Assembly: GCA_051294905.1 (NCBI GenBank)
Contig: CM119371.1
Coordinates: 34,846,001 to 34,910,000 of the forward strand
Source of the DNA: Botryllus schlosseri
Taxonomy: Eukaryota
Direction: 5' to 3'
DNA length: 64,000 bases
Position numbers and translations under genes: made by a program. Shown one piece after another: positions 30,481-34,077 of the stretch (positions are counted from its first letter, which is position 1; every line of letters begins with the position of its first letter). The notes beneath the pieces are model-generated. The model saw nothing but the letters and a program-made list of their open reading frames with translations. It was not told where the DNA came from and ran no database searches.

Positions 30481-33400
30481 TTAATTTTTTCTTGGGTCAC
30501 TGCGAAAGCGATTGAGACCACGGAAAGATGCATCGGCGTCGTATCTCACTTCCATCAAACCAGGTTGATGAAGATAATGAGCATACGTATCTTTACAGCA
30601 TTGTCTCGAGCGGTCAAAAGAAATCGGATCAGTCAGGAATTCGTTTCGATGCTCATCACAAAAATACCGTGGAAACCAATTCTCGTAATCACAGTAAAAT
30701 TCGTTCCTTTTCTCGGAAATGAGAATATCATCGAGCGGTGCTGAATGCGCGATGAAAAACGAGTTGATATCCACCGAAAGTAGCATGAAGCTGTCGGCAC
30801 GAAAATATTTGCATAAACAGTCATAAAAAAACGACAACATCCGTAACTTGACATTATTATACAACCAGAACGATACTTGAATGCAGTTATCTTGCTCGAT
30901 CTTTTGAGGGTGCTTCGTTATTTCAAATAGATCTGTGTTTAATTGTTCACACTTGATGAAAAAGCGATCCTCCACATTTGCGTCCAATTCACTTTTATCA
31001 CAGAACGTGGTTTGTTTGAGTTTACGCGGATTCATTAACTCGCGATCATAACATGAATTCGCAGCGAGTTTTTGCGTTAGCCCAATAATCTCCATGTTAG
31101 GCTCGCGATCCCCAGCACGTCGACAGTCTGAGACATTTTTCGCAAAGTTGTCAAAACATGTCTTTTTTGTGAATTCGACAGCCTCATGAATTTTTGGTAC
31201 CACCAACCCATGATCTACATACCATTTGATCAAGTCGGAGGTTAGCAAGATTTTCTTACCGCAGTACGACGCAACCAACATGTCAGCGGGTTTACTGGGT
31301 GATTTCCGATCTACAGCAAGCTGATTCATGTCACTTTTCACGGTATCGCGAGACACTGTGGTATTTTTGAATATCGGGCGGAGTTGAGCGAATCGCTTTT
31401 TCGAATGTGGTCGAGTACAAATATCAACCAGCAAACAGCCAAAGAAAGTACCATTCATCACCATCTCCATCAATTTCTGTGGGGTGACAGACTTGACACG
31501 AGTCAGTTGTGGTTGAATACCATCGAGATATCGCACAATATCAGGATTTCTCTTCTCAATATTCCACTCACATTCCCATTTACATACAACCTGATAATTT
31601 AGACTTTTGTAATAATCATGAACACGTTTAGCTCGCTCTCGACGGACTGGGTCATCACATCCGAATCTGCAATCGTGGGCGTGGAAATCACATCTAAGGA
31701 ATAATAAGATTATCCCTTGTCCGGCCGAATTACGATAAAACCCATCAGGTCGATAATTGCGCATGCCCACATGAATTTCAGGTCCGTTAAAAGCGTTGTG
31801 AACATGCACCTTATGAACATGAGAATACCAATTCATCCACTGGGTTACAGTCTCTGAGCATTTCGGTGCGGTCTTGACAGGTTTGAATTTAGTACACTCG
31901 GCGTCGATTGGTTGCCAACGTACCGCAAATCCGGTTGGACTTGGTCGACTCAAAGCATACAGATAGAGTGAGTCGCTGGTCAAACTTGTTATATGTTGCA
32001 CGATCTGTGCATTTTCCTTATAGACATGTTCTTTGATTCGAGTTACACCCGGTTTTGGGTATCGATGGAAAATGATCGATGGTGCACCCACTAAATTATC
32101 CCTGAATAGCGAAAACAGATCTTTATGTTTATCGTTGAACGTTGTGAAATCACGCGGTATGCTATTAAAAAGATGTCTCGATACAACCCCGAGTAGGCAG
32201 ACCGCATCCTTGAATATATCAACATTGAATTGGCTTTTGAAAGATTGAAATTGTTTTTCTAACCCCTCAATGAAGTAGTGAGTATCGTTCGCATTGCACC
32301 ATTTGAGATAATCACGTAAAGTAGTCATTTTGTTGTCGTTCCAAACCTTCAAACAGTTTTCATATTCAGCTGTGGATATATTACAACCTTTTAGCGGGTT
32401 GTAAAATTCGTCGTGGTTTGGTAGACTCGAGTTATTCAACTTTTCCAAACTAGTCAGAAACTGGTACGGGAAGTGAGCTTTAGCACTGCTACATTTGACG
32501 ACTTCCAAATATGAATCATACGAGAACCGAGGTGTCAAGTAATTCACAATATCCAAGAATTGAAGTCTGTTGGTCGTCATTGAGAGAAATTTGTTACCGC
32601 GTTTTAGTACACTAAGATTATCGTCAACGAGAAAACCAAACAAGTACGCTTTGAGCCAGTTCAAGTCATATCGATCACCATTGAACGACAAAACAGGGAT
32701 TTGACGCAAATAACTCATAAACTCCACTTGTAAACGTTCAAGGGGTATTGGGTGTTTTGAAGGATCGAGCACTTTCATTTCGGTAATTTTCGATTTGAGC
32801 ATGTCCAGGTAGGGTCGATATTCTGTGAGTGACAGTCTGAATGATTCACTTTGAATATCGTGAAAATGATCAATCATTTGGGCGCATAAATCGTTTGTAT
32901 CACCACTCGAGACAATTACATGCGACTTCAAGTAACCTTCCACATTAGACGATATGCTAACAGAGATGGGGATGTTCTGATGCTCTCGCAAAGTTTTTGA
33001 GGTATCATACACACTCTCTATACTGAACGCGATACGGTATTTGAAATAACGAAGCTGATGAGGAACAAACACCCCTTCTAGATCAAGTTTTTCAAAGATG
33101 TTCAGAGGAGGTGTATACACGCCACCCGGAAACACTTCAACGGGACCCGTTACACATTTGTGTCTGGTCAAATCATATTGTTCATCAAACAATCGTTGAC
33201 AAACAACACATCTATAGGTCTCCACATAACGGTTCATGTTAGTAATGAGACAAAAATGTCGATCTTCCAAATGTAGGTAAACAGCTTTCGCTTCATAGGT
33301 ACTACGCCGGAGTGCACTAGCTTTACCTTCAGTTTTGGTGTACACGAATATGGCCACATTAAACAAGACCTCGATATCACTCAACATGTCAAGAGTTACG

Positions 33401-34077
33401 CCGGCTTCCACACTGACACCATATACCGAGGTGAATTGTTGAGCCATTTCCTTTGTATCTTTTCCTAGCGAGTGGGCGATACAGCGAAAAGCACAAAGAT
33501 TGTCATTGTACAGTTTCTTATTTTTTCGACGTGTAAATGTCGAGATACATCTCGATTGTGTCAGACCCGGAGGTATTTTAATACCAACGCACCCAATCAG
33601 TAAATGACCCGTAGGGTATACATAAAACTGTACATTAGTCAGACAGACTGGCAGTGACTTTGTATCTGGTCGAGAGTTTTGTAACAAATCAAGTGCGGTT
33701 TCCAGGTGAATAGATTCAACAAATTCATCAAATTCAGATAGTGTTGAAATTAGCGTCGGTGTTTCTAATACACTATCAACATTCGTCGATGCATGAAAAT
33801 AGCGAAATCTTAGAGTCTCGATGTGGTATAAAATAAATGCATACGCGAAATTGATTTTGAAACGAGTCGACTCTGAGAAAAATATAGTTTGTATATCGCG
33901 GAAAACATCTGCTAGCTCCCGACCGATGACTCGGATATTATACACACGCCGACTCTGATTCGCTACATACGATTTTATCGCTTGCCAGTTCTGATTTACA
34001 ACTTCTTGGCGTTCGTCCGCGATCTCTGGTGGTGCATTCGGTTCTTCGCGAACACGATTTCTCCGTTGTCGACTCAT
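30481..34077 (-). CDS. Protein-primed family B DNA polymerase homologue (TP-like region, OTU, C2H2, Exo, Pol, VSR-like insert) with substituted catalytic residues
   Basis: ~1200-aa uninterrupted ORF with pPolB scaffold motifs (FN..RYDL, FLD..NYL, K..FPY, VG.PSIIFHRY, KL..NS.Y, KLRML.F.YD, PGL). However Exo I reads FSIES, motif A LTSDSLY and motif C VDINS. ATG 34077 follows a splice acceptor. Confidence 0.93.
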   Translation of the reverse strand: MSRQRRNRVREEPNAPPEIADERQEVVNQNWQAIKSYVANQSRRVYNIRVIGRELADVFRDIQTIFFSESTRFKINFAYAFILYHIETLRFRYFHASTNVDSVLETPTLISTLSEFDEFVESIHLETALDLLQNSRPDTKSLPVCLTNVQFYVYPTGHLLIGCVGIKIPPGLTQSRCISTFTRRKNKKLYNDNLCAFRCIAHSLGKDTKEMAQQFTSVYGVSVEAGVTLDMLSDIEVLFNVAIFVYTKTEGKASALRRSTYEAKAVYLHLEDRHFCLITNMNRYVETYRCVVCQRLFDEQYDLTRHKCVTGPVEVFPGGVYTPPLNIFEKLDLEGVFVPHQLRYFKYRIAFSIESVYDTSKTLREHQNIPISVSISSNVEGYLKSHVIVSSGDTNDLCAQMIDHFHDIQSESFRLSLTEYRPYLDMLKSKITEMKVLDPSKHPIPLERLQVEFMSYLRQIPVLSFNGDRYDLNWLKAYLFGFLVDDNLSVLKRGNKFLSMTTNRLQFLDIVNYLTPRFSYDSYLEVVKCSSAKAHFPYQFLTSLEKLNNSSLPNHDEFYNPLKGCNISTAEYENCLKVWNDNKMTTLRDYLKWCNANDTHYFIEGLEKQFQSFKSQFNVDIFKDAVCLLGVVSRHLFNSIPRDFTTFNDKHKDLFSLFRDNLVGAPSIIFHRYPKPGVTRIKEHVYKENAQIVQHITSLTSDSLYLYALSRPSPTGFAVRWQPIDAECTKFKPVKTAPKCSETVTQWMNWYSHVHKVHVHNAFNGPEIHVGMRNYRPDGFYRNSAGQGIILLFLRCDFHAHDCRFGCDDPVRRERAKRVHDYYKSLNYQVVCKWECEWNIEKRNPDIVRYLDGIQPQLTRVKSVTPQKLMEMVMNGTFFGCLLVDICTRPHSKKRFAQLRPIFKNTTVSRDTVKSDMNQLAVDRKSPSKPADMLVASYCGKKILLTSDLIKWYVDHGLVVPKIHEAVEFTKKTCFDNFAKNVSDCRRAGDREPNMEIIGLTQKLAANSCYDRELMNPRKLKQTTFCDKSELDANVEDRFFIKCEQLNTDLFEITKHPQKIEQDNCIQVSFWLYNNVKLRMLSFFYDCLCKYFRADSFMLLSVDINSFFIAHSAPLDDILISEKRNEFYCDYENWFPRYFCDEHRNEFLTDPISFDRSRQCCKDTYAHYLHQPGLMEVRYDADASFRGLNRFRSDPRKN

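Follow-up and report, generated by a model that had tools for sequence, protein, structure and literature searches.

We analyzed a 64,000-nucleotide stretch of the Botryllus schlosseri genome (hereafter the window; assembly GCA_051294905.1, contig CM119371.1, positions 34,846,001 to 34,910,000) and found a Polinton whose polymerase gene has lost the canonical catalytic motifs and is kept open by purifying selection. The window is best explained as holding a recently integrated Polinton/Maverick of 16.5 kb, the sole polymerase gene of which is an allele of the protein-primed DNA polymerase of family B (pPolB) that we call class A. An autonomous relative with matching ends, carrying the canonical allele that we call class B, is present in the same genome. 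Our preferred reading, to which we assign a probability of about 0.7, is that class A is a pseudo-enzyme allele of old standing that selection maintains; the elements carrying it would be a helper-dependent ("cheater") form within a Polinton population that is active, and would be copied in trans by the class B polymerase.

The element shows the hallmarks of a Polinton: long terminal inverted repeats (TIRs), a 6-bp target-site duplication (TSD), an integrase of the rve family, and a pPolB gene, recognized by homology and fold. The left TIR, of 763 nt (22426..23188, forward strand; terminus AGTAGTTATATAGATCGG), is 99% complementary to the right one (38170..38932, reverse strand). The termini start with AGTAGT, and the hexamer CACGAA is perfectly duplicated at the two sides (22420..22425 and 38933..38938, forward strand). 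An earlier note on this DNA, which proposed that the element carries a catalytically dead polymerase, had described near-identical TIRs and a perfect TSD, and the ends are as it described them.

The pPolB open reading frame (ORF; 30481..34095, reverse strand) comprises 1204 codons from a GTG and 1198 from the first ATG at 34077, the latter being the end coordinate given in the earlier note. An intact ORF of about 1200 codons with altered motifs had been claimed there, and both the motif coordinates and the codons proved exact. We compared the motifs with those of 9 distant homologues, of 10 sister copies in the same genome that have canonical motifs, and of the 150 best representatives of the family, using alignments free of gaps around every polymerase and exonuclease motif. 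Within the 3'-5' exonuclease domain (32116..33108, reverse strand), the canonical DxE of Exo I is changed to S358-I-E (33022-33024) and the tyrosine of Exo III to C600 (32296-32298; C-N-A-N-D), and Exo II and the Exo III aspartate are kept. Within the polymerase domain (30484..32115, reverse strand), the aspartate of motif A is replaced by T706 (31978-31980), with a new aspartate at position +2 (D708), the YG of motif B by YD (D1017, 31045-31047) and the DTDS of motif C by D-I-N-S (30760-30771). The aspartates lost from motifs A and C are metal ligands in family B polymerases. The codons AGT at Exo I and ACC at motif A, already pointed out for the window copy, were recovered in 20/20 class A copies each; Exo I is coded by GAC or GAT in 10/10 class B copies. 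At the C-terminus, three residues including the lysine of KxY are deleted and the ORF stops 24 residues past PGL, before any thumb, in agreement with the earlier description of a missing KxY/thumb region and a stop some 25 residues after PGL. No thumb-coding remnant was found in any frame of the 64-kb window, and the supply of a thumb by a downstream exon was rejected on that evidence. Among the 150 best family representatives, Exo I reads D.E in 121 (the other 29 being gapped), motif C reads DTD in 116, and the 14 commonest motif A strings, covering 134 sequences, all begin with D; the class A motif pattern was seen in none of the 150.

Sequence searches with the 1204-residue protein against PDB chains, Pfam and PHROGs returned nothing useful, and a profile built from the first alignment matched only zinc fingers in the PDB, contributed by the N-termini of the homologues. 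Pfam family PF03175 gave no match on the class A protein even at E ≤ 10, whereas class B passes it with 33.2 bits (cut-off 25.8). Relatives of the pPolB were nevertheless found, 10 of them at 28-34% identity in one library and 4695 at E ≤ 0.001 in a representative library. An AlphaFold2 model of residues 320-1204, computed from a 60-sequence alignment, reached a predicted local distance difference test (pLDDT) value of 91.1 and a predicted template modeling score (pTM) of 0.89. The best Foldseek match of this model was the phi29 DNA polymerase (E 5e-9, probability 1.0), and the top seven rows were all phi29 polymerase, with target-normalized TM-scores of 0.51-0.54. By descent and predicted fold, the long intact class A ORF is a pPolB without the canonical motifs. 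No relative of its polymerase domain was found in the viral and metagenome contig collections, and a search for shorter proteins gave only a class-B-like fragment with DTDS (P0137) and a 92-residue fragment 96% identical to class A (P0164), neither of which bears on other species.

To place the window copy, we used a six-frame search of the 495-Mb assembly that holds it. The 38 full or near-full matches that were scored fell into two classes. Class A comprised 20 copies, the window included, with 89-94% identity to the query and an ORF of ~1130-1220 codons; class B comprised 18 copies with 77-78% identity and an ORF of 1295-1300 codons, 16 of them without an internal stop. Every motif change was present in all 20 class A copies examined. 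All 10 class B copies that were fetched have a full thumb and carry the motifs FDIES, WYNAID, LDSNSLY, KLAGNSSYG, MDTDS and SKNYF. A 48-nt motif C probe, allowing at most three mismatches, matched 38 class A sites, 55 class B sites and 0 controls; these copy counts, from a single probe and a single genome, are lower bounds. Across the 38 class A sites the asparagine of motif C is coded by both AAC and AAT, and the exceptions to the pattern are one D-I-D, one D-V-N and one G-I-N. The D-I-D copy (G000:C9:123333-123380) is a three-mismatch match of the probe. Class A is a lineage and more than one decayed copy. The earlier note had suggested looking for sister copies with the same substitutions and for a co-resident Polinton with an intact polymerase: the sister copies are found among the 20 full or near-full copies and 38 probe sites of class A, and the intact Polinton is class B, with canonical motifs, a thumb, at least 55 sites and the same kind of termini.

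The difference between the classes is confined to a part of the element. Apart from the polymerase, the proteins of the window copy have 95-100% identity to those of three class B elements, and two other class A elements are no closer. Over positions 23000-30000 of the window, nucleotide identity to elements of either class is mostly 96-99%, and in the polymerase domain the identity to class B falls to 76-79%. Synonymous divergence (dS) of the backbone, computed without the 167-codon ORF near the left end, is 0.06-0.13 and shows no structure by class; the probable capsid gene has values of 0.075 within class A, 0.111 within class B and 0.097 between them. Because dS between the classes is ~1.0 in the polymerase domain and ~0.1 in the backbone, the split of the polymerase region is ~10 times deeper than the coalescence of the backbone. 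An Fst-like differentiation index is ~0.1 over residues 1-300 of the pPolB and 0.6-0.86 from about residue 360, at Exo I, to the end.

The class-specific region extends downstream of the polymerase gene. Class B loci have a full ORF of 210 codons in 9/10 cases and an ORF of 79 codons in 9/10; among the 20 class A loci, both ORFs are present in one, a diverged N-terminal part of the 210-codon ORF alone is found in 16, and neither is present in three, including the window. No family was found for either ORF. The protein of the longer one has a hydrophobic N-terminus (both ORFs are spanned by L022:268-1221, reverse strand). Cassette recombinants were detected in both directions, one in each. TIR variants are not associated with class, all nine termini that were read start with AGTAGT, and in all four elements with both ends recovered, two of them class B, the TSD is a perfect 6 bp with a sequence of its own. 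Class A is a cassette that starts at about residue 360 of the pPolB and takes in the ORFs downstream; the backbone on which it sits is shared with class B and recombines with it, and the two classes are morphs of one recombining and recently active population. The core of the earlier suggestion of a helper-dependent lineage is supported by these results, with the correction that class A is not a separate satellite with genes of its own.

We then considered the selection acting on the polymerase. Class A copies are open through 1195 codons in 17 of 20 cases, the exceptions being one copy with one stop, one with two stops and one with a frameshift; of the class B copies, 8/10 are open. The ratio of nonsynonymous to synonymous divergence (dN/dS) was computed by pairwise NG86 over residues 151-1140. 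Among the 190 pairs within class A, dN was 0.045, dS 0.214 and the median dN/dS 0.21 (range 0.15-0.30); the 45 pairs within class B gave 0.033, 0.269 and 0.12, and the 200 pairs between the classes 0.13, 0.77 and 0.17. By domain, dN/dS is 0.16 in class A versus 0.06 in class B for the exonuclease and 0.25 versus 0.08 for the polymerase, and it is ~0.2 in both for the N-terminal domain with the OTU/zinc-finger part. Constraint is thus relaxed 3-4 fold on the class A exonuclease and polymerase, while the N-terminal/OTU third is equally constrained in the two classes. Seven independent pairs of class A polymerase domains differ at codon positions 1, 2 and 3 in the proportions 154:94:273 (p = 2e-21).

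Variants that arose within class A were studied separately, taking only those absent from class B and located at codons where both classes share a state. Their omega is 0.25-0.27 if they are shared by several copies and 0.39-0.45 if they are singletons, and they include one stop where ~35 would be expected from the synonymous count. The corresponding class B variants have an omega of 0.06-0.13 and include no stops. Among the columns that do not vary across three distant relatives, 26 have been lost from every class A copy and are retained by every class B copy; only four show the reverse, all of them conservative (p = 6e-5). Of 172 family-invariant columns in the polymerase domain, class A retains 85 and class B 99. 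The class A protein therefore appears to have lost its chemistry and to have kept its shape and usefulness. The class A ORF is maintained by purifying selection ~3-4 times weaker than that on class B, and the earlier argument for long-term selection over recent decay, with a dN/dS far below 1 (0.21 overall and 0.25 in the polymerase domain), holds.

Under our preferred reading, class A elements would be unable to synthesize DNA by themselves, and the class B polymerase would copy them in trans when both are active in one cell. Class A would be a cheater morph, resembling a defective-interfering genome, that can persist but cannot replace its helper. We consider it helper-dependent because the catalytic residues and the thumb are lost and a live allele occupies the same backbone, between ends of the same kind. 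The dead protein may be retained for a non-catalytic service to its own element, and the likeliest candidates are, as a guess, (a) binding of the ends or service as a primer protein, in cis and together with the OTU-like domain described below, or (b) rivalry with the live polymerase over the termini. To our knowledge, the replication mode of Polintons has never been shown experimentally.

Several observations weigh against this reading. The inactivity of class A was judged from its sequence and predicted fold, and D708, present in all class A copies, together with the retained first aspartate of motif C is compatible with a relocated metal site. We infer replication in trans by class B from the co-residence of the classes and their shared termini only. 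The estimates of selection are pairwise (NG86). In RNA run X24, of which 6% was read, depth on class-A-specific bins was at most ~1.1x, and 97% of the placed reads run into unlike sequence; RNA run X21 gave no reads, and two further runs, X1 and X3, are RNA by presumption. Runs labelled as two other organisms contain 0.37-0.41 of the class A words, an observation on which we rest no claim. Finally, an omega of ~0.25 on the exonuclease and polymerase is a stronger constraint than a pure free rider needs.

In three alternatives the dead protein does more than ride along. In one, which we regard as possible but doubtful, the live and dead cassettes form an old balanced dimorphism and the dead pPolB is a functional partner, with catalysis and priming or scaffolding split between alleles of different genomes. 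The dead pPolB would then serve as a primer or terminal protein, being consumed or bound at the ends of the genome, or as a non-catalytic subunit of the replicase that its own OTU-like protease releases or regulates; if true, such a partnership would amount to a social or bipartite replication system within an animal genome. A comparably modest chance goes to interference as the main selected function, with the dead pPolB a dominant-negative competitor that binds termini or partners and throttles class B, helper dependence being secondary; it could act as superinfection exclusion or as copy-number control favoring its own element. The entire exonuclease-polymerase body is under purifying selection despite the lost catalysis, the termini of class A are common to class B, and the classes coexist at 38 versus 55 sites, all of which would suit a competitor. 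Binding or inhibition is purely hypothetical, however, these data also agree with a structural or primer role in cis, and loss of the thumb, which in phi29-type polymerases contacts both DNA and the terminal protein, would weaken a competitor. Clearly less probable is an obligate two-component replicase, in which class A supplies a non-catalytic subunit that class B needs or profits from and the morphs are partners and not parasite and host. The model for it is Pol epsilon, which carries a dead polymerase module, and both the age of the dimorphism (a polymerase dS between classes of ~1.0 against ~0.1 for the backbone) and the commonness of both morphs agree with it. The occurrence of the class A pattern in 0/150 nearest representatives nevertheless argues that Polintons generally need no such partner, and class B elements carry all that class A has, and more.

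The remaining alternatives deny either the loss of activity or the significance of the gene. Class A could still be a working polymerase with a rebuilt site formed by D708 and D1109, the element being autonomous. The change from asparagine to aspartate at position +2 of motif A required two base changes (AAT to GAC) and is fixed in 20/20 copies, the first aspartate of motif C is kept and so is the fold. We nevertheless find a rebuilt site improbable, at the level of the two-component replicase or slightly below, as the KxY lysine, the whole thumb and the glycine of motif B were lost together, the Exo I and Exo III residues are gone as well, the constraint is relaxed 3-4 fold on the exonuclease and polymerase and unchanged on the N-terminal third, and 26 family-invariant residues were lost in class A versus four in class B. 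Least probable of all, and by our estimate very nearly negligible, is decay or chance: a pseudogene family whose frames are open merely because it was copied in a recent burst, or which owes its low dN/dS to gene conversion from class B. Stops or a frameshift in 3/20 copies and the higher omega of singletons (0.39-0.45) than of shared variants are what decay would produce. Against it, class A has a dS of ~0.2 with a dN/dS of 0.15-0.30 in all 190 pairs, the variants absent from class B have an omega of 0.25-0.45 with one stop for ~35 expected, and an Fst-like index of 0.6-0.86 across the cassette argues against wholesale conversion. A chance ORF, a single decayed copy, an artefact of a recent burst and gene conversion from class B were rejected on the open frames, the dN/dS values, the differentiation index and the variants absent from class B.

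Dead family B polymerases and non-autonomous elements are both known already, and we compared class A with each. Non-autonomous transposons and defective-interfering genomes rely on a trans function from an autonomous relative with the same ends, and such derivatives normally delete the unused gene or let it decay. The deletion of the thumb and downstream ORFs in class A fits a reduced derivative of this kind; unlike one, class A keeps more than 1100 codons under purifying selection. A closer parallel on the protein side comes from polinton-like viruses, Tlr1 elements and transpovirons, in which a pDNAP domain that has been inactivated is joined to an SF1 helicase (Krupovic, Yutin and Koonin 2016, PMC5499653). 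According to that paper, this domain too is a protein-primed family B homologue from the Polinton-centered virus class that lost a motif and active-site residues and was retained as a protein, and there the helicase presumably took over replication in elements without pPolB and integrase (PMC5499653). The class A protein, by contrast, has no helicase by Pfam match, the element that encodes it is a bona fide Polinton having TIRs, a TSD and an integrase, and its dead allele coexists with a live one on the same backbone in one genome. Further family B polymerases listed there as dead are poxvirus F12, herpesvirus UL8, an archaeal family of inactivated PolB and the C-terminal half of Pol epsilon (PMC5499653). 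These share with class A a PolB fold without catalytic residues that is conserved and presumed to have a structural role; they are fixed components of cells or viruses, whereas class A is a polymorphic mobile-element cassette with a live counterpart. The marks of an inactivated-PolB pseudo-enzyme, namely a kept fold, lost catalytic residues and purifying selection, were all found in class A.

A search of a limited full-text library did not find this combination, a bona fide Polinton with a conserved pseudo-enzyme as its sole polymerase and an old cassette dimorphism with the live enzyme. Polintons are defined by encoding their own polymerase. The two classes offer a natural contrast between dozens of elements, all young, for which a live or a dead polymerase is essentially the sole difference, and trans-replication, cheating and interference in a virus-like transposon thereby become directly testable. 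The class A gene is also a clean case of a selection-kept pseudo-enzyme, in which the domain-wise dN/dS shows the parts that still matter. For annotation, it is a warning that a long intact pPolB ORF is no proof of an autonomous element.

Outside the exonuclease and polymerase, the class A protein consists of an N-terminal domain, an OTU-like domain and a zinc finger. A model of residues 1-330 reached a pLDDT of 87.9, and OTU-fold proteins occupied 29 of the top 30 rows of the structure comparison made with this N-terminal model. Residues 173-292 matched six OTU domains with Z 8.1-8.6, that of OTUD1 with Z 8.6. The putative OTU-like cysteine protease/deubiquitinase domain (residues ~173-290; 33226..33579, reverse strand) has D198, C201 and H280 as its candidate catalytic positions; across 42 sequences C201 and H280 do not vary, and D198 occurs in 90% or more. 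Although the Pfam OTU family gave no match on the class A protein, the predicted fold and the conserved cysteine and histidine indicate that this domain is intact in class A. It is followed by a C2H2-like zinc finger (residues 294-314; 33154..33216, reverse strand), a weak match (E 0.35) in which C296, C299 and H312 are invariant.

The N-terminal region is also the most variable part of the gene. Nucleotide diversity (pi) is 0.10-0.21 over residues 1-360 of the pPolB, compared with a nucleotide divergence of 1-4% in the backbone. This N-terminal third and the ORF upstream of it (together 33100-35600, reverse strand) are far more variable than the backbone and alike in this respect in both classes, with a dN/dS of ~0.2. 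The upstream ORF encodes a protein of 295 residues rich in serine, threonine and lysine (34669..35556, reverse strand), with 79-84% identity between elements. A host-facing region that contains the OTU-like domain and exists as several old alleles may underlie this variability. Nine class A copies (L011 and L013-L020) are without ~82 residues near the pPolB N-terminus; in six of these nine, a second fragment covering residues ~1-193, 72-81% identical, lies ~850 nt upstream, in three of them in another frame.

Within the polymerase domain, a VSR-like endonuclease insert (residues ~745-850; 31546..31863, reverse strand) keeps most of its conserved residues. It had been reported as altered, and one conserved glycine is indeed changed to arginine; the alteration is mild, as the aspartate of VDG, the cysteine and histidine positions and WECEW are all retained. 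Of the 10 relatives at 28-34% identity, the only source-named one is a land-snail protein. Polintons of molluscs and marine nematodes are known to have a VSR insert in their pPolB2 (Jeong et al. 2023, PMC10748475), and class A shares with these the polymerase architecture. That report treats them as intact polymerases, and neither "catalytic" nor "inactive" was found in its main text (PMC10748475).

The integrase, of retrovirus type with a C-terminal chromodomain (27457..28527, reverse strand), scores 60.2 bits with PF00665 rve (cut-off 32.6) and 33.4 bits with PF00385 Chromo, also above its cut-off. A 423-codon ORF (23665..24936, reverse strand) probably encodes the double jelly-roll major capsid protein: a feature search gave a score of 0.98 to clusters in which 14-30% of the members contain PF21738 DJR-like_dom, a result that we treat as a lead, and a Pfam search was without a match. 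Its product is 99.1-99.5% identical in five sister elements of both classes. The earlier note had listed intact integrase, capsid and protease genes; the integrase stands by Pfam and the capsid as a lead, but no protease gene could be identified, as no ORF of the element had a Pfam match to an adenain-like cysteine protease, the small ORFs being covered by Pfam. A P-loop ATPase of probable packaging type (29236..29846, reverse strand) has a frameshift near codon 104 in the window copy; its sister copy P0163 (L031) is a single ORF of 203 codons with weak Pfam likeness to AAA_14 and Pox_A32 (E 0.008, below the cut-off). Other copies have sporadic breaks of their own: in C6, a class A element, it is the integrase that is split, and in C1, of class B, the ATPase.

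Smaller ORFs fill most of the remaining space. On the reverse strand, these are the 167-codon ORF (23225..23728), for which no family was found and which has 95-98% identity across elements of the two classes; four ORFs of 123, 131, 223 and 295 codons (24942..27257); two of 131 and 115 codons for which no family was found (28463..29202); and one of 77 codons that is conserved in elements of both classes (29890..30123). The last three of the group of four have in common a C-terminal stretch of ~80 residues with ~33% identity and form a small paralogous family within the element. On the forward strand, two ORFs of 117 and 213 codons lie near the right end (36912..38039). The second (37398-38039) shows an OB-fold likeness to single-strand-binding proteins (SSB) with feature-search scores of 0.93-0.95, again a lead; an SSB-like protein at this place would fit protein-primed replication.

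A high-copy repeat of ~1 kb (35901..36899) is nested in the window copy only. It pairs as an inverted repeat with 16322-17388 of the window, and four of the five sister elements compared have no coverage at 36001-36500. A contig from a sequencing run joins 35901 directly to 36899, skipping 997 nt, and the read depth of the repeat is in the thousands. Outside the Polinton, the window contains a reverse-transcriptase ORF (40158-41213, reverse strand; PF00078, 60.4 bits) and, at 19283-21080, another element bounded by inverted repeats of 236 nt.

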